59,673 nucleotides of DNA, from the NCBI GenBank assembly GCA_000165425.1, contig CT868036.1, positions 186,001-245,673 of the forward strand, read 5' to 3'. Origin of the DNA: Paramecium tetraurelia (Eukaryota). Position numbers and translations under genes: made by a program. Below, one piece after another: positions 1 through 46,569 of this stretch. How positions within the stretch are numbered: the stretch's first letter is position 1; every line of letters starts with the position of its first letter. A model generated the notes under the pieces. It was not told the origin of the DNA. It saw nothing but the letters and a program-made list of their open reading frames with translations, and ran no database searches.

Positions 1-903
1 CTTGATTTGATTATTCTGAATTTATTCATCTTTTTTTACAGTTTCTTCTTAATCTCTAAAAATTTCATCAATATCCCATTCATCAGCTGTACTTGATTAT
101 TATTTAACTTCAACTTGCATTTGTCCAATGGGAAAGGTTTGACAGATGGCTTTTGCAATGCTATGTTGAATTTTGAATCCCTCATACAATTCAAAAGATG
201 GAAAATCATAAATAGTTTTGATGGATGACTATCTTCTTAGCCATTGAATTTTAAAGGTCTTAAGTTTAGGGAATTATTAATCATATACGACAAGTTGATT
301 GATCATTTTAGCACAACCAACAAATTCATCATTATTAATAAAAATCAAAATAACATTTGCAGGGATATTGCATTCTTGCGCTAATTTAAAGTACGTGATT
401 TCTTTGACTGTCCAAACTGAGAATCTTTTGGCATGAGCTAAATTATTTTTATTTGATTTCATGAGGTAGAAGACAGAATTGAATGTAATGAATTCATTAC
501 AGGGAGGCTCTGGTACAAATGTTTGAAATGATTCTGTGTATTTATAATGACATTGGGAATTGATATTGAAGAAACATTTGGATTTCTGACAAAATATATT
601 CTCACAAGTGGAGCAGATGAATTTTTAACAACAAGGAGTTGAAATTTCAAAATCTCTAGAGAAACAGGAAAGACATATATTTCTTCTTTTTGGAACTCGA
701 ACTAATATTATCATTTGCTTGTTTCTAATTTCATCACTAATATTCAAAATCTTTTCTTCATAAAGCATTTGGATATCGTCTTTCTTGGATGTGAACATTT
801 ATTCAATTTTGACTCTTAGGTCTCTTACTTAGATTTTGATTCCTTAAATTGGTATAGTTTAGACTTCTGAGCTGTTTTCCCATTTAAAAGTTATTGAATT
901 CAT
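1..903 (-). CDS. DWNN (ubiquitin-like) + RBBP6-type RING + YTH domain protein; 3' end lies beyond the window
   Basis: Open ciliate-code frame of 301 codons from ATG 903 to the window edge. DWNN-like MNSITFKWENSSEVQTIPIQGIKIQVRDLRVKI...IILVRVP; RING-like CLSC..PCCQKFICSTC..C..C; YTH-like FYLMKSNKNNLAHAKRFSVWT..VILIF..FVGCAKM..FKIQW..EGFKIQHSIAKAICQTF. Confidence 0.8.
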
Positions 904-998
904 TTTAAATTAATTATTAGGTAATTATTCAATTTTATTTGAATTAAATAAATGAAAAAAATGTATGTAATATTTTGTACAACACCTTTGAAATATAA

Positions 999-2626
999 TC
1001 AATTATAAATAAAATTGAAAGAACGTTTTTCTGTCATACCTACTGATGGACTCTTGACAGAGTTGAAACTCTTTTCGCTTGGAATGAAACTAGGATGAAC
1101 AGTCAATTAGTGAGGATTCTTTTTCTAAGATAAACCTCTACTAGATTCAAAACTATAAGATGATTGTCTTTCTTTAGATAGTGTAGGTTATCTTTCTTTG
1201 GAATGAGTGGTGGTGTGTCGTTCATTTTTGGTAAGAATTCTATCAACTTTAAAAAACTGAGGTTCTCTTTGTTTGGCTTAAGCATTTGTAGTAGTGAAAT
1301 AACTAGGTTTTGGAATGATAGCCTAAGTTAAGAATATGAATACTTTAGTATTATTTTATTTGGAGTTGTTTTTAAGATGAGAGAAATCAAAATAAAACTG
1401 TTGCTTAATCTAACTAGTAGGAGTAATATAGGACATATTTTTGGTGATTGTATTGAGATCTTCAATTAAATCTTCAGGCAATTTATGTTTCTTCTTGAGT
1501 TCTTCTGTTTCCAAATTTTATTGATATTTTTTAAACCATGGATAATTCAGCAATTCCACAACAGTTGGTCTTTCATCTGGATCAATGGTCAACATCCCAT
1601 ACAATAATGCAATAGCTTCTTTGGATATATCATGAATGATGGTAAATTCTCCTGATTGGATTCTACTATACAATTCTTAATCAGTGTCCCCTTTAAATGG
1701 AAATACTCCTTAGAGCATAGTGAATAGCACAACTCCTAATGCCCAGACATCTGACTTGTCTCCTCTGTATTCTTATCTTGTAACTATTTCTGGAGCCATG
1801 TAACTTGGAGTGCCACAAAACATTTTGACTTTCTTATCAATGGGAAAAGAAGTTGAAAATCCAAAATCTATCAATTTAGGAGTAAGTCCGTCTAACAAGA
1901 TATTTTCTAATTTGATGTCTCTATGTGCAATGTTCTTGGAATGACAATATTGAATTGCATCTAGAATTTATTTGAATATTCCTTTGGCAATTTCCTCTTC
2001 CAATCTTCGTTCCTAAGATTAGAATTAATGTGTACCGGTTACTTTCTAACCAAATGGTGTAATGAACTACCGCTAACGTATTCCAATATTATATTCACAT
2101 GGTTATTTGATTCCACTGTGTCTAGGATCTTAACAATATTCGGATGATCTAATTTCTCCAATATTTCAATTTCTCTTCTCACTCCTTTCCTCCTCTGCAA
2201 ATCTTTAATCTTAGTTTTTTCATATATTTTTATTGCCACTTTTGTATCACTCTCTATTTGGATAGCAACTCTCACTGCAGCATATGCACCTTGACCTATT
2301 CGACTACCCACCTTATATTATGCCTTGAATTATTCAGTTTTATTTGTATCATCGTCTGGTTGATTGATTAAGAACTTCACTCGATCACAAATGTTCTGTT
2401 GCTTGAAATCAAATTTGAAGTATTCAACATTGTCTCGTTTCTCTACTTTACAAAATTTCGATTGTAGAATTTAACTAATTGCATCTAAATTCTTCAGTTG
2501 TTGATTCTTCAGGTTCATCAGTAATTCCTATTGCAAGGGTGGTCTGGACTTGAGGGCATATTGATTCCCAATGTATTTCTCGTTCTCCTTTTGATTTAAA
2601 CTATTAGTTGCAGCTCTATGCTTCAT
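999..2626 (-). CDS. Ser/Thr kinase, CAMK group (AMPK/MARK-like), ~534 aa
   Basis: GQGAYAAV, VAIKIYEK, HRDIKLENIL, DFG, FCGTPSYMAPE, DVWALGV; one 23-nt intron 2013-2035; TGA at 999-1001. Confidence 0.93.
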
Positions 2627-5301: not shown

Positions 5302-6884
5302 TCATTATTTTGGCAATACATATGTATGTCCTGTCATAAAAATTTAGTTTCCACTACTAGGATCAATCTACACTTATTCCAATTATTAATACAAAGGTCT
5401 TGGATCATTCTGTAAATCTAAAATTATAATTAAATAGATTACTTCTTCTAAGATCTACATCTGGAGTCTAGAGTCCACTGATAGATCTACCAGGAAGACG
5501 AGTCTCTGAATCTCCAAATTGATATGATTAATCGAATTGTTATTCTTATCTCTATTGAGCTTCAGGTTCTTCCTCTTCTTCCTATTCTACTTCAGCTTCG
5601 TCCTCCACTTCTTCTATCTTGCCCCACAATGATTTATCCACAGGAGCATCAGCCTACAATCCTGTTTTTTAGGATAATTCATTTAGATCTTCCTCATCAT
5701 AATATTTGAATGTAGCATACAGTCCTGGCTAGTCTGCTTTTTTGCATGAATCCTCAATCACTTATTTCACTGAAGTGTGATATGAAGAGGGCTCAGCAAA
5801 GATACTAGCCATTCCTATAAACCTCATATGAGGATAACTTGGTGGTGGTCCATATCTTTACATATTTGGTAACCAAGGAGGTGCTTAGAAATCAGTACAG
5901 CCTAATGCACTTCTCAATTCAGCACTCATCTTTCCAGGACAAAAGTTCTTGGCTCTCATCTCCTCTTCTTTACCTTCAAAATAGATTTCACCATGTTTTG
6001 TCATTGAAGGTTTTGTTTAGTATTTGAAGAAAGCATCATGTAATATTTAATAATCGATATCCAATTTGCCTTATTTTGGATTCATTCTTTCTCTCAATTT
6101 CTATCTAACCATCTTACCTCCATCTCTATCTACAAATGGATCTCTTAACTTTGCAATTCCTGTCTTCTCTATGTAATCTGGTAATTGAAATGGCTCTTTC
6201 AATATTCCTCTTTTGTTTTACAAATATTTTCTCTTTTATGACCAATGTCTAGGAACAGTCACTGAATTACGTACACTCTTCAATTAAATTAGAAACATGG
6301 GATCTGGAGATGTGATATCCCAAAACTCAACTAGATCTGGTCTCCTTACTTTCTACTTCAATTCAGCTACTTTCAACCATCTTAATTATTTTCTTTATTT
6401 CTTTGATAATTTAGCTTCTTTCTTTTTTCCCTATTATAAATAATTTTAAATTGTTTAATTTGGTTCATTAATTTATTATTGAATTTATTATTGCTATTAT
6501 TATTACTGCTATTCTGCTGCTTATTATTCTTCCTATTCTTTCTCCTTCTCTTTTTCATTCTCATAAACCTTCTCATAAGTCTTCATCATCAATCTTTCAT
6601 TATGTTGATTGAAATTATCAAAAACCTGTTTAAAATTGTCATAATGTTTTCCCGTAATTAGAGCGTCTATCTACACTATTCAATCTGATATATACTTCTA
6701 TCTCTTAAAAGGTCTCCTCATCATAAACAACCTGCTCCTCTTCTGCTTTGACTACCTCCTCTATAATTTCTTACTTTTCTTTAGTGCATTTCTTTTTGCT
6801 CTTGTTGTTCTTTCTCCTCTCAGCTCTCTTGAATTTCTCATACTCTTCCTTTGACATCTTACTCTTAGTTACTTCTGCCTTCAT
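5302..6884 (-). CDS. SF3B2: splicing factor 3B subunit 2 (SAP145/Cus1), ~510 aa
   Basis: LKVAELKQKVRRPDLVEFWDITSPDP..VPRHWSQKRKYLQNKRGI (DUF382) and QRYGPPPSYP (PSP domain); two 25-nt introns give an intact frame. Confidence 0.93.
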
Positions 6885-6960: not shown

Positions 6961-8130
6961 TCAACAATTATACACATATAATTTATTAGTCGATCCTCCA
7001 AATAGTATTTTATTATCTATCCATGTACAAGCCATAGCTTTTCCTTCTCCATTCAATTAATACAATGGTACCTCTCCTCTTAGATCCCACAAGTAAGTAT
7101 TTCCATCCATAGAACTCTAAAATTGATTTATACAATGTATTACCACTATGATTTATCCATTAGCATTAGCAGAAATGCTAGTTAACTAAGACAATGAACT
7201 CTTATATATTTTAATCAATTATTCACTCAAACTATCCCACAATTTGATATATCCATCCTCATGGACTGATACAATTTATTAATTGTTTTCTAAATAACAT
7301 AATCCAATTATTGCTGAATCCTTAGCAAACAATTATTTGTTTATTGATTCTGTTCTCTTATTGAATAGGCAAATTGAGTGATCATAAGACCCAGTCAAAA
7401 TAGTGCTATTTCTAATCCATTGACAACAAGTTATTTGTTATTAATGCACTTTAAAGTTCTAGACCATTTCAATCACCTACTTTTACACTGCACTAAGATC
7501 AAAGAATACTAGTTCTCCATTGGCAGTACCAACACAAAATTCATTTGTATTCTTCTTATTAATACAACTGCATTCTCCATATGATGGCAAAGAACCTTAT
7601 GCAATCAACTCCAAATTGTCTGTAATCCTTTACACTCTGACAGTGCAATCCCAATGAGTAGAAATTATTATATTTTCATAAATGGTAAAACTCTTTGCCA
7701 ATTTATTTTTGTATGTTTTCAGAATTTTACCCTTTTCAGAACAAACCACAATGTCTCCATTAGATAAACATGTAAGGATATGATTATTTAATCTACCTAT
7801 TGCTATGATCCAGTCATTCATATTTATAGTTTGCTTTAATTTAGGTTCTGGGACAGCAAATAGATATTCTATTTACAATGTTTTTTCAGTTGCGATTTCA
7901 TTTGATGTAATGAATTCATGTAGAGTAGATCTCAAACTGATTCCATTAATAAAGAAATCGAATAATTAATTATATTCTTAATCAGGGTTCTCAGCTAGCA
8001 GTAATTATTAAATTAGAGAACTAAGATCCCCTTAATTCATATCTCCTTGAACAGCTATTTCATTGTTGCTTATCTGATATTCTTATGGCAAGCTTGTGAC
8101 AAATTTCACTATATATTCACTATTGTTCAT
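6961..8130 (-). CDS. WDR12: ribosome biogenesis protein WDR12/Ytm1 (NLE domain + WD40), 389 aa
   Basis: Intronless frame; NLE-like VKFVT..FDFFINGISLRSTLHEFI..EKTLQIEY..PEP, then NDWI and WD40 repeats. Confidence 0.85.
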
Positions 8131-8143
8131 TAATAAAAATTTA

Positions 8144-9062
8144 ATGCTTTTCTTTATATTAATTTCATTGGTATAATCTATTGATGTGAGACCAAATGTC
8201 AATCTGACCATCGGCTTAGATTTTATGGACAACTCTCACCTGCCATTCTTTCAGCAATTTCAATCGTATTTCTTAGATTTCAAATAAAAAGGATGTAATC
8301 TACTCCATAATATCAATTAGTAAATCTAATAATAGCATAACACCTATTGCCATGTTACAGTTGCAATACTAGACATCAGTACAAATAGCCTGAACAAAAT
8401 TGCTTTGGAGGAGGTTAGTATTGTTGTATGAAATATAAATATTGCAAGAGTTTTCTGAATCAGTCTCAGGTCAAACTATATTGACAGAAATGCTCAGATA
8501 ACAATGTGTATTAGAAGAATAGCCTCAATTCTATTTCAATTACACTATCTATTTCTCTCAATAATGCATGCAATTACCAAGCGAAATGAAGTCATGTTCT
8601 GAAAACTACTTTACAAACAATAATATTTCTACTCAATCTATTGACAATTGCATTCAAAATAGTTTTGAAGGACCATCAGAACAAATTCAATCTCTGAAAA
8701 CTAATAGAATCTTAGATCAATACAAATAATTACAATACAATAAAACAAAATTTGCATTAAATTTAGACGATTAAGATTTGACCAATACTCCATTTAAGTA
8801 AATTATGAACTAACTTTGCAAAAAGTTTGAATATGCATCTATTCCAGCCTGTGGAGTCATTAAGGCAGATTCAATTCAAAAAACCAATCTATTGGAATAA
8901 ATATTTTTGATTCTTTTTGCGATCATTATTATTTTGATTATTGTTCAAGGGTCTTTACAATTGCTTTAGAATATACAATTCAAAACATTCTTTACTCCTA
9001 AAAGTAGAATTACAATCCCCAAATTAGAGAAAGATCATATCATTTAGGAAGATGATGTTTGA
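8144..9062 (+). CDS. type I membrane protein resembling the vacuolar sorting receptor central (thioredoxin-like) region, ~289 aa
   Basis: Signal peptide MLFFILISLVQS; NCFGGGQYC..SGQTILTEMLRQQCV..YFNY..FSQQC..CS..IDNCIQNSF; TM IFLILFAIIIILIIV; 26-nt and 23-nt introns restore the frame. Confidence 0.7.
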
Positions 9063-14139: not shown

Positions 14140-17100
14140 ATGTAACATAATGATGACTTTGATTTTCAAGGTGGCAACTAACCATAAAGTATGTTTGAAT
14201 ATTATTTAAGTTGAACAAGACTAAAAGGATATTAAAATACAAGAGCTTAATGATGATGATGATCCAGTATTTATGATTTTGTTGGAAGAATCAAATATCA
14301 CTGATTTAGAATATGCTATACTGCTAGATGATTTATTATTTTTCAAAAGAGAAGCAAGGCTCTACAATTATATTGCCTACTTATTCTAATTGACAGAGAT
14401 AGACAAATAAAGTAGACTATTCAAAATATATTATTATTAGATGCTCCTGAGCATATTGGCTAGTTAACTAAGTTATTGAAATTGCTCTTTTAGATTCATG
14501 AGATTGGATAACATTCAGAATACACTTAAATAATAGAATAACAACATCCTTTTGGATTGTTTATAAATAGTGATCTATCTATGATAGATTTATTGAAGAA
14601 TATAATTTTAAATCAAGAAATCAATAAAAAAAAAGATGATATATTCTTTTAAATCAGAATTTATTTGCCAAGATTTTTAATATTTTCAATTAATCCTCCT
14701 AAACCATTTGTAAGTAAAAACTAAATGAAATCATTACAAAACTAGATCATTAGTAAAATCAATAATTAAGTATTTGAAACTAATAATGTGACACCATGTT
14801 AATTAGATTTGTTGGCCTTTTCTTATATTTCTGATTCCAAGTTAAATGATTAATTGTACAATGAAATAATTTTTCTCCTGAAATCAACACTTGATAGGTA
14901 TATAATATATTTAAATTATTTAGTCTTTTGGAAGCCAATAGTGCAGAACAAGGTTATAATCAAAAAATCAAAAATCTATTGGAATTTTTCTTGGTATTCA
15001 CAACAAACGAAAAAATCTTGTAATCCTTTCACTAAATTACTTTTCACACTACCCTCTATAATAGTATCAAAAATAGTTTTTCTGCCTATGGAATTGATAA
15101 TCAACCCAGTTGGTTCTAAGACCCTTTGATTATAGACTATATGGTAAACTTAATTACCAGAATTCTTAGTTCTTATTAGGATAATTAATAGTTCACTGAT
15201 ATATTGTATGAGGATTTCATAAATTGTTTGAAACACAAAGAATTGGATCTGATAACCAAAGTGATCATACCTATTTTGAATAGTCAACAAGCGCCATTAG
15301 TACTTGTATGCTTCCACCCAAAAGTAAGTGTGTAAGAGAGAAAATTACAAAGTGAACTTTTTTTAGAAAACTATTCTAAAATGATGGAGGATAGTTTAAT
15401 CGAGTAGAATGTTCAGTCATTGGAAAAGAACTATTATAAAAAATTGAATTACTATTATTCTCAATTGAGAATGTAGCCAATTCATTTTATTCCAAAAACA
15501 GAAACATTAACATAATTGAGATAATTATATGATGAAAACATAAACATTACAAATTTGAGAGAGGGTTCAATTAATGATATAGAGGTGATTAACCCTGTTA
15601 CTAAGATACTTTATCTTAACAGTAATTATTAGAAGTCATTACTGGTTTCTTTTGGAAAATCGATGGGAGGCTTTTTAAGGTTATTTGATGAGATTAAATT
15701 GTATTTAGGAGAAGATAATGTAGAGGTTAAGGAATTATTGAATGAATTGTAAATTTTTTGTTAGATTGAGGAATTTCAAGAGGATATTGTATAACTTGAG
15801 GAATTCTAAAAATATTTAATTTCATTAGTTGAAATGAACAAGAATAAAGATATTACAGAGATATATGAAAAGCTCAATTCGATGATTTATTAAAAATTAG
15901 ATCAATTTTTTAAAGAAAAACCATATCTAAAATTCATAGCTATATTGAAATATCGAATCTTTGAGTAGATAGTGATTACTGCAGAAAAATAATTGAATTA
16001 TATTAATAAGAATTAGAGGATGGATTCTGGAAATCCTAAAGATGTTGGGAATGGAAAAGATTAATAATTCTAATAATTCAAGTAGAATTAAAATTATAAA
16101 AAAGCGAAATTTGAAAATATATTAAACTGTATACTTCAATTATTAGATCAGCCAGTTAGCATAAAAATACTTTAGCGCATATAATCATCGGATGTTATAA
16201 AATTTGTCATTAAATATTTATAAAGTATCAATTTAACATCATCAAAAAGTTAAAAAACACTTGGTCAAATAGTAAAGTTAATCTATTGTTTAGCATAAAG
16301 TGAGATGACATTGAAGTTATTCATATCAAATGAGAATATATGTTTATTTAGATAAATGGAGTCATTTAATAATAAACTAATAATGCGTTTATAAGCAGGC
16401 AGTTATATATTAAATACCCATAAAGAATTTATGTAATTGTATCAATATGTGGAAGCTAGTTTATATGCTGCACGATTAATTAATATAAAATTTTTAGATT
16501 TAGACCATAAACATAAAGAGGATGCTAAATTGAGTAAGCTTTAATTGTATAGTACCTTTATGAAAATATTGGCAGTTGGAAAGTGTGAAATAAAGACTGA
16601 TGCGAAATACTTGTCTAATATGAAAGAGTATTATCAATAAACTAAAAGTCGATCAGAATATAAAATTTAAAAATTTTTGAATCAGATATCAACTATTGAA
16701 TAGAACATACCCATTTAAGCAACTAATTCCATATTCATAAGACATGATAATGCTAGAATGGATTGTATGAGAATCGTAATTTTTGGTGGCAGTGGTACAC
16801 CTTATGCGCATGGAGCATTCTTGTACGACCTATATTTTGGAAATGATTATCCAGTTAGACCTCCAAAGATTAAATTGGCAACTCCTCGACACGATAAAGT
16901 AGGATTTAATCCCAATTTATATAATTTTCGAAGAGTTTGGTTAGATTTACTTGGTACATGGGATGATAGTTGGAACGTTGATTACTCCACAATATTAGAA
17001 AAATTATTTTCGGTTAAATCTCTAGTGATGAGTGAAAATTTTATGATTAATAAACCGGAATCTTAGATGGAAACTCTTAATGTCGGATAAGCTAATAGAG

Positions 17101-20100
17101 GATATTGCAATTTCATTAAGATTAATAATATTAGATATGCGATGATAGAATAATTACAAAATCCACCCAGAGGATTTGAAGAAGTAATAAAGAAGGGTTT
17201 CTATTTGCGTAAGGAATTGATAATGAAGGAGATTGAATTATGGATAGAATAGGCCGATTTGCCAGCAACTTACAATCAAATTTAGAATGAGTAGACTTAC
17301 AACTTACAACCTTCATTCTATAAATAAGACTTGATAAAAATATATGAGGAACTGAAAGTGGAATTAGAGAAGTTGAAGTTCGATATTGAAACAGATTTCC
17401 AAGTTAATCAAAGGAAGAAAGAAATCAGTTTGAATTTCGAAACTCCTTATTCATAATAAGAATAAAAAACTAAAAAACAGATGCTCATGCCTTAAGGTTT
17501 GAATATAAATGAGATTGATGTCAATTATAATGAAAATGTATAATAAAGACAATTCGATTTAAATGATAAGAATCTACAAAATTTGATGAGTAGATACATT
17601 GCAGTTGTGGGTCTAGATGCAGTCAAGAAGCAAAGCGAATCTACTATTTTTATTCACACTTTGAATGGTTTAGGCATTGAAATAGCTAAAAATTTAATTT
17701 TATCAGGTGTAAAAAGATTGATCCTGTTTGATTCGGAACTAGCTTAGATGAGTGATTTAGGTAGCAACTTTTATTTAACAGAACAAGATTTGAAAAAGAG
17801 AAGAGATTTGAGTGTTTTAAATAAATTGAGACATTTAAATCCATATGTCTAAATAGATGTTCTCTAAAATAGTCTGGATGAATTGAATTTGGATGAAATT
17901 TAAGTATTTGTCACATAGGATCCAGATATTGCAAGTAAGGTATCAACTAATAATAAACTTGCAGTTATTTTGGCATAAACAAGAAACATTTTTGCTAGAA
18001 TTGTAACAGATTTTGGAGATGAATTTATAGTGGAAGACAAAGATGGTGAATAATCGTCAGAAGTCAATATTGAGAATATATCTAATAATGTTGTAACTTT
18101 GTTTAAGAATCAAAATCATAATCTAAGTGAAAATGACTTAGTAATTATTAAAGAGGTCAACTAAGAATAAGGCATTGGAGAGAGTTACAATTAAGTATTC
18201 AAAATAAAGAATGTTAAAACATAATCATTTGAATTAGAAACCAATAGAGTATTTAATAAGTATGTTAGTCATGGTATAGCTTATCAATAGAAATAACCTA
18301 TTAGGCTGTAATTTGATCGAATTTAAAAGGCGATTAGTTCATTCAATCATTATTGTGATAATGTTGGAATTTTTGATGGAATTGATTTAATAAAAAGAGA
18401 TATCATTCATTTCTGTTTGAATACTATTGCAAAAGATTAATTGACACATAATTGGGACATCGAAAAAATCAAAATGTTTATAACATCAATGAGATTATCA
18501 GATCTAAACTAAAAACTATATTTTAAATACAACGAATGCGTGCTTACTAAATATCAAGAAGAGTTGTTACCTTTATTTACATTATTGTCAATGAATACAT
18601 AATTCTAGCCATTATGCGCATTAGTAGGTGGAATGGCAGCATAAGAAGTTTTGAAAGCCATAAATAAAAAATATTCTCCAATCCATTAAGTTTATGTCTA
18701 ATCATTTGAAGATGTACTTCCATTTAAACTGACAGAATTCAACTTTGTTTAAGTTAGTCAACCTAACAATCTTGAAATTAATTTAAAAAAATATGAAGAA
18801 TGCATGTCGAAATTAGGATTCTAATAGAATTAAAATACAAGATATACCGATTTGGCTAACACTATAGGAAATATCAACTAAATATTTAATGCTGATGTGT
18901 TTGTCGTAGGTGCTGGAGCCATAGGGTGTGAATTACTTAAGAATTTTGCAATGTTAGGTGTTAGTAAAAATGGGAAAATATATGTAACTGATCCAGACAT
19001 CATTAAAAACTCAAATCTAGGTCGTTAATTCCTTTTTAGAGAAAAGCACATTAGGAAACCTAAAAGTGTGACAGCAGCTGCCGTTGTCAAATATATGAAT
19101 CCAGATATCAATATAGTAGCAAGATAAGATAAAGTATGCCCAGAAACTCAAGATATCTATCATACTAACTTTTACAATTAAATGAAATGTATGACTACTG
19201 CATTGGATAACGTATAGACTAGATTGTTTATGGATTCTAAATGTATTGAGAATGGAGTGCCATTAATTGAAAGTGGTACTTTTGGATCAAAAGGACATGT
19301 ACAATCCATCATACCTTATATATAAACTGAAAGATATGTAAAAAAATAAGATCCTGAAGAAATCAATGACATACCATATTGCACTTTGAAAATGTTTCCA
19401 GAATCTAATATCCATTGTTTAGAATGGGCCCGTGACAAGTTTGAATAGTACTTCTTTAGAAAACCATAAGCTTTGTTTTAATTAATATAGGATCCCTCTC
19501 CATTATAATAAACTGTAGAAATGGCCATTAAAGTGTTAAACAAATATCCTACCTCTTTTTAAGAATGTGTGATAATGGGAAGATTAAAATTCCAGAAATT
19601 ATTCAATCAGGATATAATAACTTTGACGAGTGCTTTTCCATTAAATTCTGTAACTGAAGAAGGTCAACCTTTTTGGGCTCCTCCTAAGAGATCTCCTCAA
19701 CCCATTGAATTTGGTGAAAAATTTGCATTTGAATTTGTTGAAGATTTTGCTATATTAACTGCATAAATCTACAATATTGCAATTCCCAATTAATATGATT
19801 TGAATCTCATATTATAGAATGTTCAGATTCACAAGATGGACATAAAATAAAATAAGATTCAATAGATAATTGAGATATAAGATAAAAACAATCAATTATA
19901 AAAATAGATCGTTATTGAAGTCAAAAATTATGACCAACTTATTTAAGAGGCTAAGTCATTATTAAATAAGGTTTAACCGAAATTGCCATAGCCTCAAAAA
20001 TTTGAAAAAGATAATGACACTAATCATCATGTATCTTTCATTAAAAATGCCACTAATGCTAGAGCAATAAATTATGGTATCTAAAGAGTAGATTGGATGT

Positions 20101-20666
20101 GGACCAAATTAAAAGCAGGAAGAGTAATATAATATTTTATGATCTTTCTCTAGATTATTCCAGCCATGGCAACCACAACATCGTGTATTGCAGCCTTACA
20201 GACTTTGGAATTGATTAAAATACTACAGAAATCTACTTAATATAGAAATACATTCTTAAATGCTGCCATTCCATTTATGATGCAGAGTCAACCGGGAAAA
20301 GCACAAGAAGTAATTAATTTATTTATTATTATTAGTTCAAATTGAATAATGGTTTAAGTATTTCAATTTGGAAGAAGTTGAATCTCAACATTAAGAAATT
20401 GACTGAACCATTGCAATACATAGTGTATGAAATTGAAAAGATGGTAGGAGAAGAGATAATTAATCTCCAATAAAGGGGAAAATTGTTCTATATGAAAAAG
20501 ATGATACCTAAAGATGAGATAAAAAGATATGAGTATATCAATTCTCCAATTAACAATTGCATAGAGGTAGATTTTAATAATAATTTAGTTTATTGATGGT
20601 TTATCACAAATAAATGTGTAAATAAGTAACAATATTTCGTTTTTAGTGCTAATCACTCTAGTGTGA
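14140..20666 (+). CDS. giant fusion: long N-terminal region + BIRC6/UBE2O-type E2 domain (Cys lost) + UBA1/UBA6-like E1, ~2,100 aa
   Basis: E2 (~16700-17250): [66 protein letters not shown]. Frame traced open into the E1 (from ~17586): [91 protein letters not shown]. About 5 short introns. Confidence 0.88.
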
Positions 20667-33336: not shown

Positions 33337-34155
33337 ATATTTAGAAAATTATTATCATAAAAAAATATGAAGAAAGATTTTAATAAATAAAGTGGAGGGT
33401 ATCTTCCACCATCCCCTTCTTAGAATAATCAAAATGTTACGTATTAAGGAACACTCAATTAATTATTAAGTAAAATTTTTCTCTACTATACAGATCCTTT
33501 TAATATTTATAATAGATTCGATATTCTTCTTTGTAATCCTCTCAAGTATAAACATCTTCTATCTTCAAAATATCTTGATGTCAACCTATATTACTAAAAG
33601 TCTAATTAATTTATGTAACTCTAAGATAAGGGCACCTATTTTCAGTCTACTCCTTTACTAATAACATGAATTCTATTAGGCGTAATTCTAGATATTACTA
33701 TTATTAAAATAGGTTAATAATTTTTTGCTTCTGCTGATTAAATATATATTGCATAATAACCTAAAAACGACAAGGTATATTAATGACTTTATAGAGATAA
33801 TTAATAATAATCTATCTAATTTATTGATTACTTTATTACGATTTGTATCCTCATTAATTTATTTGTATTCCTGTCTATAAACCAGAATATAACCTGAATG
33901 AGTTGAATGCACGAATATATAACACATCAATATTGCAAATTATATATAGATACTAAAATAATATATAAAATATATTTATAGAATAGTAGATCAAAAATAA
34001 TATTGTTTATTTTGATAGAATGTAACAATCTCTAATTTTTGGAATTGTGATTATTCATAGTTATATTTATTTATATATTTCTTATTAATTATATTTATTT
34101 GGCGTAGATGATAATAATAATATAAAGTAAAAGTGTAATAATATTAATTATTAAT

Positions 34156-35539
34156 ATGGATCACATGGAGTAATTGTGTTAGTCTGAATAATAGAAACCT
34201 CAATACCAATAACTTGTATTGCCAATTTACTAATAATAACTGTTCGTTTCTCACGGACCAAAATTGGGAAGAAGTGTACAACTTAAATGCAAGGGTTTCG
34301 ATTAAGTTGATTCTCATCAATCTGGCGATCCAAATTATCATCAAATTTCATAGAATCAGTAATCCTTTAATGGCAAAACAGTTCATTCCTAAATGCAGTC
34401 CATGGTATCTCAAGAAATAAAAACTGAAGGTTTAAAAGTTTTGGTAACTGAGGAAGCAAGATAAAAAAAAATAATCTTAAGAGGAGATTCTGGATTATCC
34501 TGGTAATCAGAACTAAGACTTGAGATTAAACCTGAAGAATAATCAAAAGAATCAAAAGATTTATAAGAATGTCAAATCTGCTATGTTGATAAACCCAAAG
34601 AATAATTCATAGCCCCACTAAATTGCAAACATGACTTCTGTAGTGATTGTCTCTCTTAACATCTCACTTAAAACATTTTGAAGGGCAACGTTCTAAGTAT
34701 CACTTGTCCACAAACTTCGTGTACTGTAGCATTTAATGATGAACAAATTAAAGGGCTAGTTTAGGAGAAGATATATGAAAAATATAAGAGATTCTATAAC
34801 AGACAAGTAATTAGTTAGAACAAAAATGTGAGATGGTGTCCAAAACCAGTAATATATATTTTTTATAATAGGATTGTGAAAATTATGTAATAGGAAATGG
34901 AAATGATTTACTTACTTGCATTTGTGGATAATCTATTTGTTTTCAATGTGGGAATCAATATCATAAAGGAATGAATTGCATTTAAGCTATGGATGCTCAA
35001 TATTTGTAAGCCAGAAAGGATAATCTAATATTTGATTGTCCCAGTTGCAAGGCTCCTATCCAAAAAAAAGGAGGGTGCAATCACATGACCTGTTACAAAT
35101 GCAAATATTAATTCTGTTGGCTATGCAGAGGCAAGTATTCCTCATATCATTATGTAATTTTCAACGTATTCGGATGTGTCTGTAATTAATCATTTCAATC
35201 ATAGTCCCTGGTGGATAGGGATCCAATCTCTAACCTTTCAAAAATCCTATGTTGCTAAGAGTTATGATGATCATTCCAAAAATATTACTTACTATTGTCC
35301 TCGTTTCAGTATTATTAGCCCTTTTGCCATTCTTCCTCATGTACTTAATAGTTGCAGCTCCTTATGAACTTTCTAGAAGACTATGTGGATTTAGATTAAG
35401 AAGATATAGATTAGGAGGCAAAATAGGTTTTGGAATACTTTACTTCTTTTTGGGAGTATTATTATCCCCTTTGACAGTTGCCATTGCCATACTGGTCAGC
35501 CCGTGTTTTTTGATATTTTATTTGTTGGATAATATCTGA
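34156..35539 (+). CDS. RBR (RING-IBR-RING) E3 ubiquitin ligase with C-terminal TM segments, ~445 aa
   Basis: [67 protein letters not shown]; hydrophobic C-terminus; two ~23-nt introns. Confidence 0.92.
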
Positions 35540-39580: not shown

Positions 39581-40661
39581 ATGCTGAACAATCCAAACTC
39601 AGAAAATAAAAAGAGAATCCCTTGGTCAAATCGAGTACAAGTATTTTCTATTAAAGGAGGATTCCCTCTTGTAATCTTTTGTTGACATGTATGCAAGTAA
39701 AAAATAAGGTTGGAAATAAATCTCTGAATTGCTTATATAATAAGGCTATGAAAGGAATCCTAAAGATTGTAGAGAAAGATATTAAAATTATCTAGACTCA
39801 AAATTCAATAAAACAAAATTAACAGAGCAAGAGGTCGATATTCTTTTTGAACTCATTATGAAATATGGGAATAAATGGGTATTAATTCCTTATTAATAGA
39901 CCTCAATTGCTGAAAAGCTCAATCATAGAACTGATTAAGATGTCAAGAATTAATTTTATGCTATTGTTAAAAAGGTGTTTAGAAGATTATTGAAAGCAAC
40001 TTTACCAAAAGATCAAAGAAATAAATGTTTAATCATTATTAATATTAGGTTCAAAAATAACAGCCTCTTTACGTCCTGCCCTTATTTCTCATATATTTTC
40101 TAATAATAAAGAAAATTCTCCTAAATAATTCAATATTTCTAAATAAATGAAAGACCTTTTCAAAAATTTAATACTTGATAATAAATCAATTTAGTTGGGA
40201 GATGAATTAGATGAAAAAGAGAAAAAAAGAGTACGAACAGTATCAGATTATTTGGGGAAGTAGAAGTAATTGTGTTGTTTAATTTAAGTTAAAAATATCT
40301 CGATAATAAAAATTTAGGAAACATAAATTAGAGAAAAATCATTAAGCCAAAACATAATAAAAAACTTAAGCTCTACAGCAATCAGAATCATCAAAACAAC
40401 ATACTATAACGAATTTTAAATAATCAACATATTTTTGATAATAATTTCTAGACCTTTTTTCCAGATTAAAATGTTGTAAATGAAGAAAAATAGTTTACAT
40501 AGACATAAGATTAATATAATTTACCACAATTATTTATCAGCTCCAGACCCCCATTTTATCTGCTTTCGTGCTATAAATAGAAATAAAATAATTTAAATTT
40601 ATCATTAAATTATTCTCCATTATATGAACCATACTAGGACACAAGCAACTTAAATATCTGA
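39581..40661 (+). CDS. Myb (two-repeat) DNA-binding protein
   Basis: RIPWSNREDSLL..GWKQISELL..RNPKDCRERYQNYLD..KYGNKWTSIAEKLNHRTDQDVKNQFY; several short introns. Confidence 0.88.
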
Positions 40662-43449
40662 TGGATTGAATAAAATATTTTTGAAAAAATATTCAATTTA
40701 TTTTATTAACTCCTATTTGTTAATTAATTTCTTGATTTATGTCATTTTTGCATGTAGATATGAAGATCAATATAACTATAAAATAACACAGAAATTCATA
40801 GATTTTGAATATGAATATTCAATAATTCATTTAAAAGAGAAGAGACTAAATACATGATTTAGGAAGTAGACTCAAATGCTAAATAATTTTGTTTATGTAA
40901 GGTCTAATTATTATTGTAACAAATTATATATTTTTAAAAAACATGATCTATTTAGTGATTCAAAAAGTAGTTAAATTTAATTAATTAAAATAATCATATA
41001 TTTCTGTTTGATTCATGCAAATTTACTAATAATAAACATTTTATCATTTTATATGGATATAATACAAATTTCAATAGTAAACCTTGATTTTAATTTTGTT
41101 TAGTAAATATGATTATTATTCTCTAATAACGATAACTAATCATATTTTATTTCCATTTTTTATGATTAGGATAATCATTGATTTTTTTTTATTTTTTAGA
41201 CATCATTTAAATAAATGATACTAAATGATTTGAAATGGAAAATTTTTCTTCTTCTGAATTTTTAATTTAACTACCTTATTTAAGACTCTGAAACAAAAAA
41301 GCACATAAATCATAATAAAATTGAGATAATTAAAATTCAATTTATCCATCTTTCTTTTGATGTTGAATTCTACATTAGATTTGATAAACTACAATAAAAT
41401 TAGGTTTGGATCAAAGAGAATAATATATAAAATGGAAATTAATAAATTTTACATAAAAATAACAATTTATTTTGTTATTCTGATAACACTAAGTTTAATT
41501 TTGTATTTAACTGTTTTTTTTAAATAAACCACAGCTTAAAAATATTTTAATTTTTATTATTTTTACTTTTATTTAATTAATACTTATAAGTATTATTAAA
41601 GTACTCAAACACATAATTAATATTTTGATTTGCGTTTCTTTTTTATCATATTTTTATATAAAAAATTGTATAAATATTAGAATTTAATTAGAATTTTAAA
41701 TACTATTAATAAACTATTCACCTTATGATTCCTAGAGTGGATAGTACGATTCATCAAAAATCTTCATTAAAATAATTACAAAGTGATTAGTTTGCAGTTT
41801 AAGTTGAAAGAGCAACAAAAATATGGATATATAAGGAATAAATAGAGAATGAAATGATAATCTATAAAATGCAAAGGTTTCTCAAACTAATAAAAATCAC
41901 TACGGTGATAGATCAAATGGAGATTGATCTCAAATTACTGCACTTATTTTGCAATACACAGACATAAATTTTATAAACCTCTAGAAGTATTTACTCGAGA
42001 TACAAAAATTAACTGCAATTGCAATTATTTATAATTTTGAAATATAGAAACATCTAGAAGAACCTAAATTCACATTAATGATACTATAACCAAAATATAT
42101 TTCCAATTTATTCTAGATATTAATTGCATTTATGAATTAAGTTTTGGCGATGAGATTTGTCTGAAATGTATAACTTATTACACAAGATTCTATATCCTTT
42201 TACTCTTGAAATTAATTTTAAAATTCGAACTCCTGTGACTGTGGACTCTTTAAATTGGTATTTTAGTTTAAGTGATTGATAAATTGGCGATTGATGACTT
42301 AAATTTAAATTGGATTACATTGAAACTTACAAAAATGAATTGTTATTTGATTTAATTTAAAAATTTGAGTTAATAAAACAAGACATCATTGTTGAAGCTT
42401 TGAGTTATGATTGCGCTCATACACACAGTTGAATTTCTCTTAATTTATAGTACTAATAAATTTTAGAGATGCATATCAAAATATACAAATATATAAGACT
42501 TAATGAACATTGCTTAATGTAAACTATCGAAAGTTACTCATCAAATTATTTAAATCTAGAAGCATGCATTAATATAAACTCAAACCATGTATTTACGATC
42601 GTTAAAATAAGATCAATTCATCAATACATAAATTCTAAGATATACTAATAGCAATATACAAATCTTAAAATAATATCCTCAGAATTTAATAAACTTCAAG
42701 AAAATATTAAATAATCTAATCAACAAAACAAATACTCAAGAAATGAATAAATTTTTGAACATTAAAAAGTCGCAATAGTTCTATGTGCTATTTAGAATAA
42801 TATAAAATATTATCGTTGGCGTGTTTTCTATTCAAATTTTATCTAATTCTGTTATTTTTCATCCAATTTAATTTCTTTTACTTCTATGTTAAATGAAAAT
42901 GATAAATTCATTTATATTTTAATAATTTCTTAAATCTAATAAATTTCCCAACACATTTCCATTTAATCTTAATTCTCTATTTTATCAGTGTCTATAATAT
43001 TCTTATTCTCTCAAAGTTATTTTAATATATTCTCTTTTCCTCATATAATTTTTCTGATAATAAAATTAGTATTTCAACAAATTATTCTAAACATTTAAAC
43101 TATTTATATTCTTACAAAATGGCTTTTTATTTATTCTTATTTTTTATTCTACTTGACATATTTTTCTTTAATAATGTATTTGTATCTGACGTTGATCTTT
43201 CTATGCTTTTAAAAATTTACAAAACAATATATATATGTCCTCTATCACATTCTTGATTGAAATTTTTATTAAGTTTGATTCGTCAGTTTAAAAATTATAT
43301 ATAATTTATATTTTCTTCTTGGAATTAGGTAGAAATTTATTATTTATTGACGAAAAATTTATATCCAATTCCATTCTTATAATGTTTTTTCAAAAACCAG
43401 TTAGGATGCATTAAAATTAAAATAAATAGCACGAAAAATGCATAAAAAT

Positions 43450-44050
43450 ATACCTATATCTATTTCATATTTGGAATGTCAAAAAATAATTGCAGCAGAT
43501 TTAAGATAGCATATAGATGAGTGATTATTTATTATAAGATTACCTATTTACTATCGAAGCATAACATTTAACTTGGTTGAATGAATGTGTTTGAATTACT
43601 AAAATCCTAAGAATCTTTGTTCTTTAAAAATATATATAATGATTCTTTTTAAACATTTAGATTGCAAACTGACAATTAGTCCCTTTAGAGGTTTTTAAAG
43701 GACATGGATACACATAAAGTTATACATCTAAGTTCAACTTTAAAGCCACTACAAAGGAGAATAAAAAAGCAATTCCTGTATAGATTTTCATTTTTTATCA
43801 CATATCGGAGTATAGAGAACCAATACATATTGATCAATCAGGAATTGGGAATGAACATTACAATTTAAAAATGTGGTGAAAAAAATATTTACATCGAAAA
43901 ATTGACAAAGCTTAAATTAAACAAAGAATTTATATTATTGGTGCAGGAAGTTAGGAGAGAATTGATACTCACTTGGCTAAATAATATTATAGAACAAACC
44001 TTAACTATATTTTAAGCTTTGTGATTCCGTATATCCAAAAATATTAAAAT
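43450..44050 (+). mobile_element. decayed IS630/Tc1-mariner (DDE) transposase remnant
   Basis: Frame from 43682: FKGHGYTQ..PIHIDQSGIGNEHYNLKMW*KK..RIYIIGAGSQE, with in-frame TGA 43877-43879; a frameshifted HTH-like GMSK../IAADL near 43470-43500. No TIRs identified. Confidence 0.55.
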
Positions 44051-44881
44051 GTTTAGAAATATCAGAATTATGATTTATAAAAATACAAATTTGATCTAAA
44101 TAATAATTTTTATTTTGAGCCAAATTATTAAGTAAATAAAGTATTATAATTGCTTCCAATTTAATTAATTCATTTTAATCATGATCATTTTCATTGAACA
44201 CACAATCCTCTAAAATTATTTATACTTCTAATTTTTTCTCGATTCAATTAATTTAAATTAGAAATAATTAGAATAATGACTAAAAAAGTATGCTCAATGT
44301 ATGTAAAAACTTGAATGATAATTTATGTGTTAATTTTCATAAAAATCACATCATAAAATAGAAATATCATGTTTACATATTTATTAAGGAAAATAAAATG
44401 ACTATCACATATAACATCATAAAAATAAAGACTATTTCCTTCATTTGGCTGTTTTTTTTTAAATTTTTCAAGTATAGATATCATTTAATGACATTGTGTT
44501 AACATTTATACTAAGGAAAAACTTTTTATAAATACCAATATTCTATATAATACCCAAATATATATAATATTCCTTCATTTAAAAAAATGTACCATATGTA
44601 TTCTAAAAATTATATTTTTATAATTAAAAACAATCCAATTTTCCCTAGTTTCTATCTCATCATATATGAAATGTTATTAATAAGAGTCCAATTGAAACCA
44701 CATGATCTGAAGAGGAATTCTTTTTAATTCATCTACTGAGTAGTTTATTTTTGGATTTAAACCATTTCAAATAGTAAAATGTAAATAATATTATTGAAAT
44801 GATTAATAATAGAATTTGAAAAGTCATTTTGAAAAATAATAAAGAGGGGAAAATAATTTAATTCGAAATTCTATCAGACGT

Positions 44882-46569
44882 ATGACTAACATCTAAGTTG
44901 TCTCATAGTATAGAATTTATAAGGATAGCCTTATTGGTGAAGGTCAATATGGGAAGATTTATGCATGCGAAGATACATAAAACCTTAATTTAAAATTATG
45001 CGCAAAAGTAATTAATATTTAGATTAGATTATCGAAGGTTAAGTAGAAGACCCTAAGACTGGTAGAGAAATGGAACTTATGTAGATGATTATGGAACAGG
45101 GAAGGAATAATAAACACATTGTAGGAGTCCATCATGTAGATATGAATAAATAAAGAATTATTTTAATATTGGAAAGATGTGAATGTGATTTGCAAACGCA
45201 GTTCAAGGAAAGGAGGAAAAACAATAAATATTACACTCCTGTGGAAGCTATTAATATTTTGAAATAAATTATCAAAGGTTATAAACTACTCTATGATAAC
45301 AAAGTGATACACAGAGATATTAAACCTTAAAACATTTTATATTTGGATGGTGTATATAAAGTAGATATAGTTATTAAAAAAGATTGCTGATTTTGGATTA
45401 GCCAGAGTTTATCAAACAAATGATGAGCTTACTAAAGCTGGAACACCAAAATATGCCTCACCTCAATTATTTGATTAGGGTTCCAATTTTACAAATTCTG
45501 CAGACATCTATTCGGTAAATTGAAATAATATTATAAGCTTGGAATCGTTTGCTATGAACTTATATTTGGAGGCCTGCCATACTAAGTAGGCAGTTTACCT
45601 TAATTGATAATGAAGCTAAAATAATTAGAATCAGACCCAATAAAAATTAATCTCTCTGCTGCTGGAGTAAGTACAATTTTATTTTATAGATGACTTAAGA
45701 AATAGCTAATTTGATAGAGAATATGTTAAAGTATGATGAAAATAAAAGAATCACTTGGAATAATTTATTTTCTCACCCTTTATTAAAAGACTAACCATCC
45801 TCTTAAGTCACTCAAATCACTAAAACTTCTCCAACGCCTCAGATGATTCAAATCCCTTAATTCTAAATCAAGCCTCCATAGTTTGTGTAAAGTGCTAATC
45901 CACAAAAAATAGATAAACTTCCATAGTCTCCCTCTCTACCCTGCTTCTAATCAACCCTAGAAATATCAGATCAACTTTATTAAATAGCTACCTTTATGCA
46001 TTTTGTTTTAGATTCTCTAGATAAGCATTTGTATATTCATATTTCATTTTAGGAATCAATAAAGATAAATACATGCCGATGTAATCAAAATAAAGTAACA
46101 ATTATACTACCTTTCATCTTGCTTTTATTAGCATAGCAAAGCAATAAAACATAAATCCTAACATAAATCTAACACCAATCATTCTTTAGCAGATGTTGAA
46201 AGAGCAATAATATAGCTTGAGACAGCTAAATAATTACTTGTAGATTAAACAATCAACTATGGTTTATCGAAAGATTTTCCATTTAGAGAAACTTTGGCTG
46301 ATTTTACAGGCTATTTCGTATAATTGAGCAATTTATTAGCAATCTAATTCCTATTTCCATACACGAATAAATTTAGTTACTATTTAGAATATTTGCAGTA
46401 AATTATAAAGATTTATTTATAAAGGTTACTCTTTTGTTTGACAAAATTAAAAGAATTAAAAGAAGGAAAAGATACAACAATAATTCATAAATATATTGTT
46501 GATATTTAGATCTAATTACAAAATGAAATTGTTATTAAACAAACCTTGAATTCTAAAATTAATAATTGA
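44882..46569 (+). CDS. ULK/Atg1-like Ser/Thr kinase
   Basis: IGEGQYGKIY, LCAK, ILERCECDL, IHRDIKPQNIL, IADFGLAR, AGTPKYASPQ, RITWNNLFSHP; several short introns. Confidence 0.88.

Follow-up and report, generated by a model that had tools for sequence, protein, structure and literature searches.

A Paramecium gene family joining a DWNN-like domain, an eight-cysteine module and a YTH domain, with intact and degenerate aromatic cages in two clades

In plants and apicomplexans the machinery for mRNA cleavage and polyadenylation contains YTH readers by way of CPSF30. In yeast and human, the CPSF73 nuclease is held by the DWNN domain. To our knowledge, RBBP6/Mpe1 is the only family in which DWNN has been described. 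In the available part of one report the domain is placed at the extreme N-terminus of proteins (PMC1360078). For yeast Mpe1, the accessible portion of another describes a ubiquitin-like domain (UBL) that binds the nuclease domain of Ysh1/CPSF73, a zinc knuckle required for Mpe1 to join the polymerase module and, after the knuckle, a pre-mRNA sensing region of ~60 residues in touch with Pfs2 and the poly(A) signal RNA, with all four parts of the protein reported as important (PMC9380774). Among alveolates, the Toxoplasma protein YTH2, which consists of YTH only, co-purified with an RBBP6 homologue and CFIm25 according to the available sections of PMC8354455, and Toxoplasma CPSF4 itself carries a YTH domain (same source; title of PDB entry 7nh2). 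In the ciliate Tetrahymena, orthologues of METTL3 and METTL14 are present and N6-methyladenosine (m6A) can be measured in RNA, as stated in the accessible part of PMC7145601. Here we describe a gene of the ciliate Paramecium tetraurelia that begins with a DWNN-like domain and continues into a YTH domain. It lies at one edge of a stretch of 59,673 nucleotides (contig CT868036.1 of assembly GCA_000165425.1, positions 186,001 to 245,673 of the forward strand), the whole of which is referred to below as the window.

The gene belongs to a family whose proteins start with a DWNN-like UBL and a putative eight-cysteine zinc module, followed in the same chain by a YTHDC1/CPSF30-type YTH domain, a short conserved motif and finally a tail rich in Lys, Ser and Arg. 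What is new is this combination of domains together with its occurrence as a pair of paralogues, one with an intact and the other with a degenerate YTH domain; what is already known consists of the automatic labels that databases attach to the relatives. A preliminary annotation of this stretch made from its letters alone (the sequence-only reading) had supposed the architecture to be undescribed. Our search of main texts in the openly available literature, judged in part by title, returned no description of a DWNN-YTH fusion, and to that extent the supposition stands, but relatives of the protein already bear the automatic name 'DWNN/YT521-B-like' in the ESM Atlas.

Within the window the gene occupies positions 1..903 of the minus strand, where its first 301 codons are defined by the reading frame and by orthologues and the frame continues past base 1. 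From the ATG at 903-901 to base 1 there is no stop under genetic code table 6; 12 TAA/TAG codons are read as Gln, and the frame is open under the ciliate code only and is truncated by the window edge. The P. sonneborni orthologue (490 residues) is identical at 254 of the 301 positions (84%), with 0 gaps over the whole 301 residues, and cluster look-ups gave orthologues of 493 residues each from P. pentaurelia (91% identical) and P. primaurelia (92%). Since the orthologues measure 490-493 residues and the frame leaves the window, the complete protein should have ~490 residues. An acidic Gln-rich linker (residues 259-301; 1..129, minus strand) leads into the part outside the window, which in the orthologues contains a conserved G-[KQ]-IPG...Y-x-HP motif followed by the Lys/Ser/Arg-rich tail. 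No second copy of the gene was found when the protein was compared with the whole window by tblastn (next best E 0.15).

Transcription was examined over window positions 1-1400, to which raw reads of two oligo-dT RNA-seq runs were mapped together with two sets of contigs, all bearing the same species label. In run X19, from which 200 stranded oligo-dT reads were placed, cover is continuous from 1 to ~930 (28/30 bins) and the first mates all lie on the plus strand, the orientation that common stranded libraries give for a transcript of the minus strand; no splice joints, insertions or deletions occur in these reads across the gene. Depth falls to ~1 in the bin 894-940 and to 0 at 941-1034 before resuming over the next gene. 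Transcript contigs (X3, X7) cover 1-927 and 1-899 end to end, two of the contigs continuing past base 1. The contig end at 927 and the drop in depth delimit a 5' untranslated leader of ~25 nucleotides (904..930, minus strand), a stretch that contains no upstream ATG. This cover, which is stranded, polyadenylated and free of gaps and joints, places the DWNN-like, cysteine-rich and YTH parts on one unspliced transcript, and the 301 codons are the 5' two-thirds of an expressed, intron-free gene. The single uninterrupted frame and the domain coordinates given in the sequence-only reading were thus correct, as was the assignment of all domains to one gene and one transcript, which both the ungapped orthologue match and the joint-free RNA cover bear out; the possibility raised there, that transcripts might assign the domains to separate genes, is contradicted by the RNA reads.

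The best-supported part of the protein is a divergent YTH domain (residues 144 to ~258; 130..474, minus strand), delimited by Pfam, by a family profile and by a structural model. Pfam family PF04146 matches residues 144-225 (229-474) with an expectation value (E) of 1.8e-8 and 34.7 bits against a cut-off of 22.1, over model positions 2-93 of 135, and it matches all 12 family members scanned. When a profile built from five members was searched against the PDB, the CPSF30 YTH domain ranked best (5zuu; E 2.1e-15, 60 bits), followed by YTHDC1 chains (E ~2e-11 to 7e-11, ~46 bits), a chain of a CCCH zinc-finger protein (7ng2; E 7e-10, 42 bits) that is grouped in this search with the entry entitled 'Toxoplasma CPSF4-YTH' (7nh2), Mmi1 (E ~3e-7, 33 bits) and YTHDF1-3 (E ~2e-5, ~27 bits). 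A single-sequence search of the same database with the window protein placed Mmi1 chains at the top at E 0.014, tied with CPSF30-YTH. An AlphaFold2 model computed from a 15-sequence alignment has a mean predicted local distance difference test (pLDDT) of 45.8, reaches pLDDT 58-78 over residues 141-255 and extends the fold to about residue 255, compared with a mean of 32 from the single sequence. Foldseek returned 151 matches to the 15-sequence model at E <=0.001 (top E 2.4e-6), and the 42 shown were all YTH structures. Judged by these profile matches and the predicted fold, the presence of a YTH domain in this protein is certain, and its type is that of the nuclear DC1 and CPSF30 domains.

Two old Paramecium clades differ in what remains of this domain. 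The window protein belongs to clade B; an exhaustive protein search and cluster look-ups identified a second group, clade A, which is ~37% identical to it, has the same order of parts and includes a 502-residue protein (P0004) and the P. tetraurelia proteins GSPATT00035788001 and GSPATT00004230001. In clade A the YTH match covers model positions 2-135 of 135 at ~101 bits, whereas in clade B it covers only positions 2-93 at 30-35 bits and leaves the last third of the model unmatched. Both clades have the first aromatic-cage Trp, which in the window protein is W164 of the VWT motif (codon at 412..414, minus strand); it is the sole invariant column of the 15-sequence alignment and aligns with the 'vW' of CPSF30 and YTHDC1 chains. 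Clade B also keeps the KSN...N...AK..VW half of the domain.

The difference lies downstream of this residue. Clade A is intact at all three cage positions and carries RDPKWQWCGTSTIQLADNFSIEW, at the place of which clade B has VVYDQQFPKLKTFKIQW, 8 residues shorter and devoid of Trp; in the region of the second cage Trp the window protein reads VVYDQQFPKLKT and the sister clade RDPKWQWCGTSTIQLADN. Two MAFFT alignments locate the shortened loop at residues 202-217 (NQLVVYDQQFPKLKTF; 253..300, minus strand), with the 8-residue gap placed differently in the two runs; the extra loop residues of the sister clade include the KWQW Trp pair and the Leu of QLADN. The profile-PDB alignment puts a Trp and a Tyr of the CPSF30 chain at the region of RDPKWQWCGTSTIQLADNFSIEW, and the clade-A-like fragments P0008, P0022 and P0024 retain Trp and Leu in the cage loop. 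YTHDC1 has its second cage Trp and its Leu in the same region. Of a three-residue cage (Trp, Trp and Leu/Trp/Tyr), the window protein therefore has the first Trp only. The lost Trp might be replaced functionally by F211 or Y206, but the model has pLDDT <50 at 203-207.

The window gene is, by sequence comparison, a degenerate paralogue, and clade A keeps the complete YTH domain, so reading of m6A would be more likely in clade A than in this gene. On these points the sequence-only reading holds up well: it had recognized a YTH domain, had noted that the Trp of VWT at 412-414 is kept, and had doubted m6A binding because a second cage Trp was not obvious, a doubt that the shortened Trp-free loop justifies for this paralogue in particular.

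The region before the YTH domain is more difficult to classify. Residues 4-71 (691..894, minus strand) form a DWNN-like ubiquitin-like domain that is defined by a match to PF08783 at E 0.002 over model positions 1-74 of 74, whose 18.8 bits fall short of the cut-off of 26, and by a structure match of an orthologue in the Atlas. Comparable weak matches (E 0.0007-0.011) occur in both clades, in 10 of the 12 members scanned, the other two being without an N-terminus, and in all 10 the match sits at the extreme N-terminus. The match spans all 74 model positions in the window protein, and likewise in the three members of clade A that were scanned one by one, but fewer in clade-B orthologues; no other ubiquitin-like Pfam family was matched in the window protein or in the members scanned. 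An ESM Atlas structure search with residues 1-130 of an orthologue (P0002) ranked a 'DWNN domain-containing protein' cluster first (template modelling score 0.52, residues 1-92), and a feature search with the same segment gave ubiquitin plus RING clusters (0.88, 0.87) and then MPE1 (0.83). The Atlas cluster nearest to clade A, at a score of 0.85, is the 'DWNN/YT521-B-like domain-containing protein' cluster of 94 members, in which YTH is present in 100% and DWNN in 96%; its commonest phylum is Ciliophora, the phylum being known for 3 members only.

Five residues after the DWNN-like domain comes an eight-cysteine module (residues 77-118; 550..675, minus strand) with the spacing C-x2-C-x10-CC-x4-C-x2-C-x9-C-x7-C. 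C77, C80, C91, C92, C97, C100, C110 and C118 are conserved in at least 90% of sequences, C105 is not conserved, and the pattern is present in 13/13 members that carry the region; the putative module very likely binds two zinc ions. The RING consensus of RBBP6 is given in the available part of PMC1360078 as C-X2-C-X11-C-C-X-[NS]-X2-C-X2-C-X12-C-X2-C, from which the first six cysteines differ by one residue (x10 in place of x11).

A number of observations weigh against deriving these two parts from RBBP6/Mpe1. Every DWNN score lies below the curated cut-off (16.4-19.6 against 26 bits), the family profile retrieved no RBBP6 or Mpe1 chain from the PDB even when E was allowed to reach 10, and both AlphaFold2 models are unusable over residues 1-140 (pLDDT <50), where neither a DWNN fold nor a RING cross-brace is seen; the Atlas scores are below 0.9 and are therefore leads only, by the Atlas's own statement. 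In the cysteine module the [NS] is missing and the last pair is C-x7-C, so that the strict RBBP6 RING consensus occurs in 0/13 members, and the best RING-type matches reach no more than E 0.4 in Pfam (zf-C3HC4_3, one member) and E 4.2 in the PDB (RNF123). A weak DNMT3 ADD zinc-finger match competes with the RING assignment (ADD_DNMT3; best E 0.022, range 0.022-0.055, in 3 members). Pattern searches for C-x2-C-x4-H-x4-C and a looser form of it found a CCHC knuckle in none of the 13 members, nor was there a Pfam match to zf-CCHC. The spacers are short, with the 5 residues before the cysteine module and ~25 between it and the YTH domain, and with the knuckle absent they prevent the contacts of Mpe1 with the polymerase module from forming here in the manner known. 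The ADD_DNMT3 matches, with the accompanying DNMT3A matches in the PDB (E 2-3.4, residues 49-107), were judged to be a coincidence of cysteine pattern. Elsewhere in the window a 288-residue frame (34108-34974, plus strand) contains a C3HC4 RING finger at E 5e-6, so Pfam does detect ordinary RINGs in proteins of this genome.

On balance the N-terminus is quite probably a DWNN homologue, as the full-length match, its position and its recurrence suggest. Chances appear about even that the cysteine module is a RING descended from that of RBBP6. The lack of a knuckle and of room for the RNA-sensing region means that the protein is not a plain RBBP6/Mpe1 orthologue, although it may be partially Mpe1-like, working through its UBL. 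The DWNN-like domain proposed in the sequence-only reading is thus upheld by a weak match over the full model, by its place at 10/10 N-termini and by the Atlas, but stays below the Pfam cut-off. For the proposed RING, the eight cysteines (13/13) and the near-RBBP6 spacing of the first six speak in favour, and the missing consensus (0/13) and the want of a profile or structure match speak against; that no zinc knuckle separates the two domains was correctly observed and extends to all 13 members.

By sequence search the family was found in Paramecium and in Paramecium-like proteins, and the evidence from beyond Paramecium is that of the Atlas cluster. A phmmer search over 1.84 billion representatives gave 6 matches at E <=0.001, five of them Paramecium or Paramecium-like proteins or fragments; the sixth, a repeat protein (P0007), was judged spurious. 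Word-index searches matched 1/176, 8/2503 and 9/2317 candidates, the sole outsider being a plant YTH protein (P0025). Neither type of search returned a member from another ciliate genus, a result that does not imply absence because the word index requires shared 5-mers and one divergent query was used. A metagenome scan of 134 pattern matches confirmed one locus, on contig L001 (39% GC), which encodes a clade-B relative that is 55% identical over its best segment and is without the Trp loop. The gene on L001 adjoins the same kinase gene as the window gene does, forming a syntenic pair, and since it falls in clade B, that clade predates the aurelia complex. Both the relative and the kinase change frame several times on L001, and the relative has an in-frame TGA; because the frame changes affect both genes, L001 was treated as an error-prone contig. 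Part of the clade-B gene is repeated in P. pentaurelia by P0005 (111 residues; 96% identical to the window protein over the matching stretch) and in P. primaurelia by P0016 (127 residues); these could represent additional copies that are truncated, or gene models that were split.

Tentatively, and with somewhat less than even confidence, we read the family as a nuclear adaptor tied to the 3'-end cleavage machinery. On this reading the N-terminus would derive from the RBBP6/Mpe1 lineage, and the DWNN end would bind the CPSF73 nuclease in the way that the UBL of Mpe1 binds Ysh1. Contact with RNA, made in Mpe1 by the zinc knuckle and the RNA-sensing region, would fall to the YTH domain. Such an adaptor could bring the cleavage machinery to selected transcripts or regulate it there. 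Clade A would select transcripts by m6A; clade B might do so by an unmethylated RNA feature, in the manner of Mmi1, or through partners, or might alternatively have a regulatory and possibly competing role. The conserved motif and the Lys/Ser/Arg-rich end of the orthologues could add nuclear or RNA-processing contacts. The simplest reading of the architecture would be that ciliates fused two interacting proteins, a YTH protein and an RBBP6-like protein, into one chain. The sequence-only reading had likewise proposed a link between YTH and 3'-end processing through RBBP6; the accessible part of PMC8354455 reports an association of this kind for Toxoplasma YTH2, but the window gene itself is not a plain RBBP6 orthologue. 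A bolder version holds that ciliates are without a canonical Mpe1 and that the DWNN-Cys8-YTH protein is their Mpe1/RBBP6, its YTH domain acting as the RNA sensor that licenses CPSF73, with cleavage gated by m6A in clade A and by an unmethylated signal in clade B; we consider it improbable.

Other readings of the same features have to be weighed against a role in 3'-end processing. The absence of the knuckle and RNA-sensing region required for the Mpe1 mode speaks for an adaptor of the ubiquitin system or of chromatin, unrelated to CPSF; its ubiquitin-like domain and zinc module would take part in ubiquitin-type signalling, directed at targets that the YTH domain picks and that might include DNA N6-methyladenine. 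N6-methyladenine is abundant in ciliate DNA, and the single-stranded DNA of transcribed genes is a candidate target. PDB entries 6wea, 7l4y and 9szp are entitled as YTH domains holding N6-methyladenine DNA, the readers of this mark in ciliate DNA are described as unidentified so far in the available part of PMC12695648, and the clusters nearest to the N-terminal 130 residues of P0002 are of the 'ubiquitin + RING' kind, with MPE1 behind them. Set against this, DWNN is the sole ubiquitin-like Pfam family matched, the YTH domain is closest to the CPSF30 and DC1 types of nuclear RNA processing, the basic tails of the orthologues resemble those of RNA-processing factors, and the damaged clade-B cage argues against methyl-adenine reading by the window gene at least. 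We regard such an adaptor as unlikely.

It is less probable still that only the YTH domain is real, the likeness to DWNN and RING being due to chance or generic, so that the protein is simply a divergent ciliate YTH protein. The DWNN scores under the cut-off, the failure to match RBBP6/Mpe1 in the PDB and the low model confidence at the N-terminus fit that idea, and UniProt names the orthologues just 'YTH domain-containing protein'; yet the weak match recurs at the N-terminus of 10/10 members in clades that are 37% identical, the Atlas structure search ranks a DWNN cluster first and the 94-member cluster has DWNN in 96%, and the eight cysteines are conserved in 13/13 members. The state of the clade-B cage raises a separate question, whether clade B is a decaying duplicate, redundant with clade A, that retains less and less YTH function and serves no independent purpose. 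The fall from ~101 to 30-35 bits with the last third unmatched, the shortened loop, the truncated extra copies (P0005, P0016) on scaffolds of full-length orthologues in two species, and the frame changes and in-frame TGA of the relative on L001 would all agree with decay. The window gene is nonetheless free of stops, insertions and deletions over 301 codons, is 84-92% identical among four species of the aurelia complex, is transcribed and polyadenylated, and belongs to a clade older than that complex; the kinase on L001 is frame-shifted as well, so the defects there look like contig errors. Decay of this kind is very unlikely in our judgement, and the tentatively preferred reading remains that of a nuclear adaptor of the cleavage machinery, with clade B as one form of it.

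Several other features of the window deserve mention. The stretch is AT-rich (GC 0.22-0.29), with a minimum of 0.215 at 40001-45000 and 0.25-0.29 in the rest of the window. The gene that adjoins the DWNN-YTH gene encodes a Ser/Thr protein kinase (999-2626, minus strand) in two frames, 999-1823 and 1871-2626, with a short intron probably between them; X19 reads differ from the window within it at 1140 (A>G) and 1146 (T>C), which are probably strain differences. A few kb away lie genes for an SF3B2-like splicing factor (5405-6589, minus strand; DUF382 and PSP, E 1e-54) and a Notchless-like protein with NLE and WD40 (6961-8211, minus strand). A 1734-residue frame at 15141-20345 (plus strand) has an E2 domain (UQ_con, residues 536-623) followed by E1_FCCH, ThiF and UBA_E1_SCCH, and looks by its domain order like an E2-E1 fusion. 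The unknown bases at ~55711-55926 (72 X in translation), near the start of a WD40-repeat protein (frame 53632-55935, minus strand), are an assembly gap or a masked stretch.

A joining of YTH and DWNN in ciliates would show a second wiring of YTH to the 3'-end machinery, and were the improbable replacement of Mpe1 true, it would be a third independent connection of m6A to 3'-end formation beside the plant and apicomplexan CPSF30-YTH proteins. For the association of YTH2 with RBBP6 in Toxoplasma, a YTH-DWNN family of this kind would serve as a 'Rosetta stone'. The pair of paralogues with intact and broken cages would offer a natural test of the contribution of m6A to poly(A) site choice, and RNA interference by feeding is routine in Paramecium. 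Even without a tie to CPSF, the family is still a candidate for the ciliate readers of adenine methylation.

Compared with the systems outlined at the beginning, the family shares features with each and is identical to none. YTHDC1 shares its fold and its N-terminal motif set (KSN..N..AK..VW) with the family, but possesses the full cage and is without a ubiquitin-like or zinc domain. Mmi1 of Schizosaccharomyces pombe also has a divergent YTH domain and selects nuclear RNA, namely unmethylated RNA containing the determinant of selective removal (DSR), without m6A; it binds RNA on a different face of the YTH domain and, unlike the ciliate proteins, has no DWNN or zinc module. The CPSF30-L proteins of plants and CPSF4 of apicomplexans carry the same YTH subtype on a 3'-end-related protein, whereas the partner here is DWNN with the eight-cysteine module in place of CCCH fingers (no Pfam match to zf-CCCH at E up to 10 in the window protein or the members scanned), and the YTH domain of the window gene is truncated in the cage loop. 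RBBP6/Mpe1 resembles the family in having an N-terminal DWNN-like UBL followed by a cysteine-rich module, with a basic, Ser-rich tail in the orthologues, and in the order of six cysteines, C-x2-C-x10-CC-x4-C-x2-C here and x11 in RBBP6; it differs in its knuckle and RNA-sensing space, both absent here, in the [NS] that is missing here, in a last cysteine pair of C-x2-C against C-x7-C, and in lacking the YTH domain added in ciliates, whose DWNN scores moreover stay below the Pfam cut-off. In Toxoplasma, as far as the available sections of PMC8354455 describe it, YTH2 and the RBBP6-like protein are separate polypeptides, and the likeness is one of association: a YTH protein and an RBBP6-like protein occur there in one alveolate complex, and the ciliate family would have the corresponding pair in one chain.

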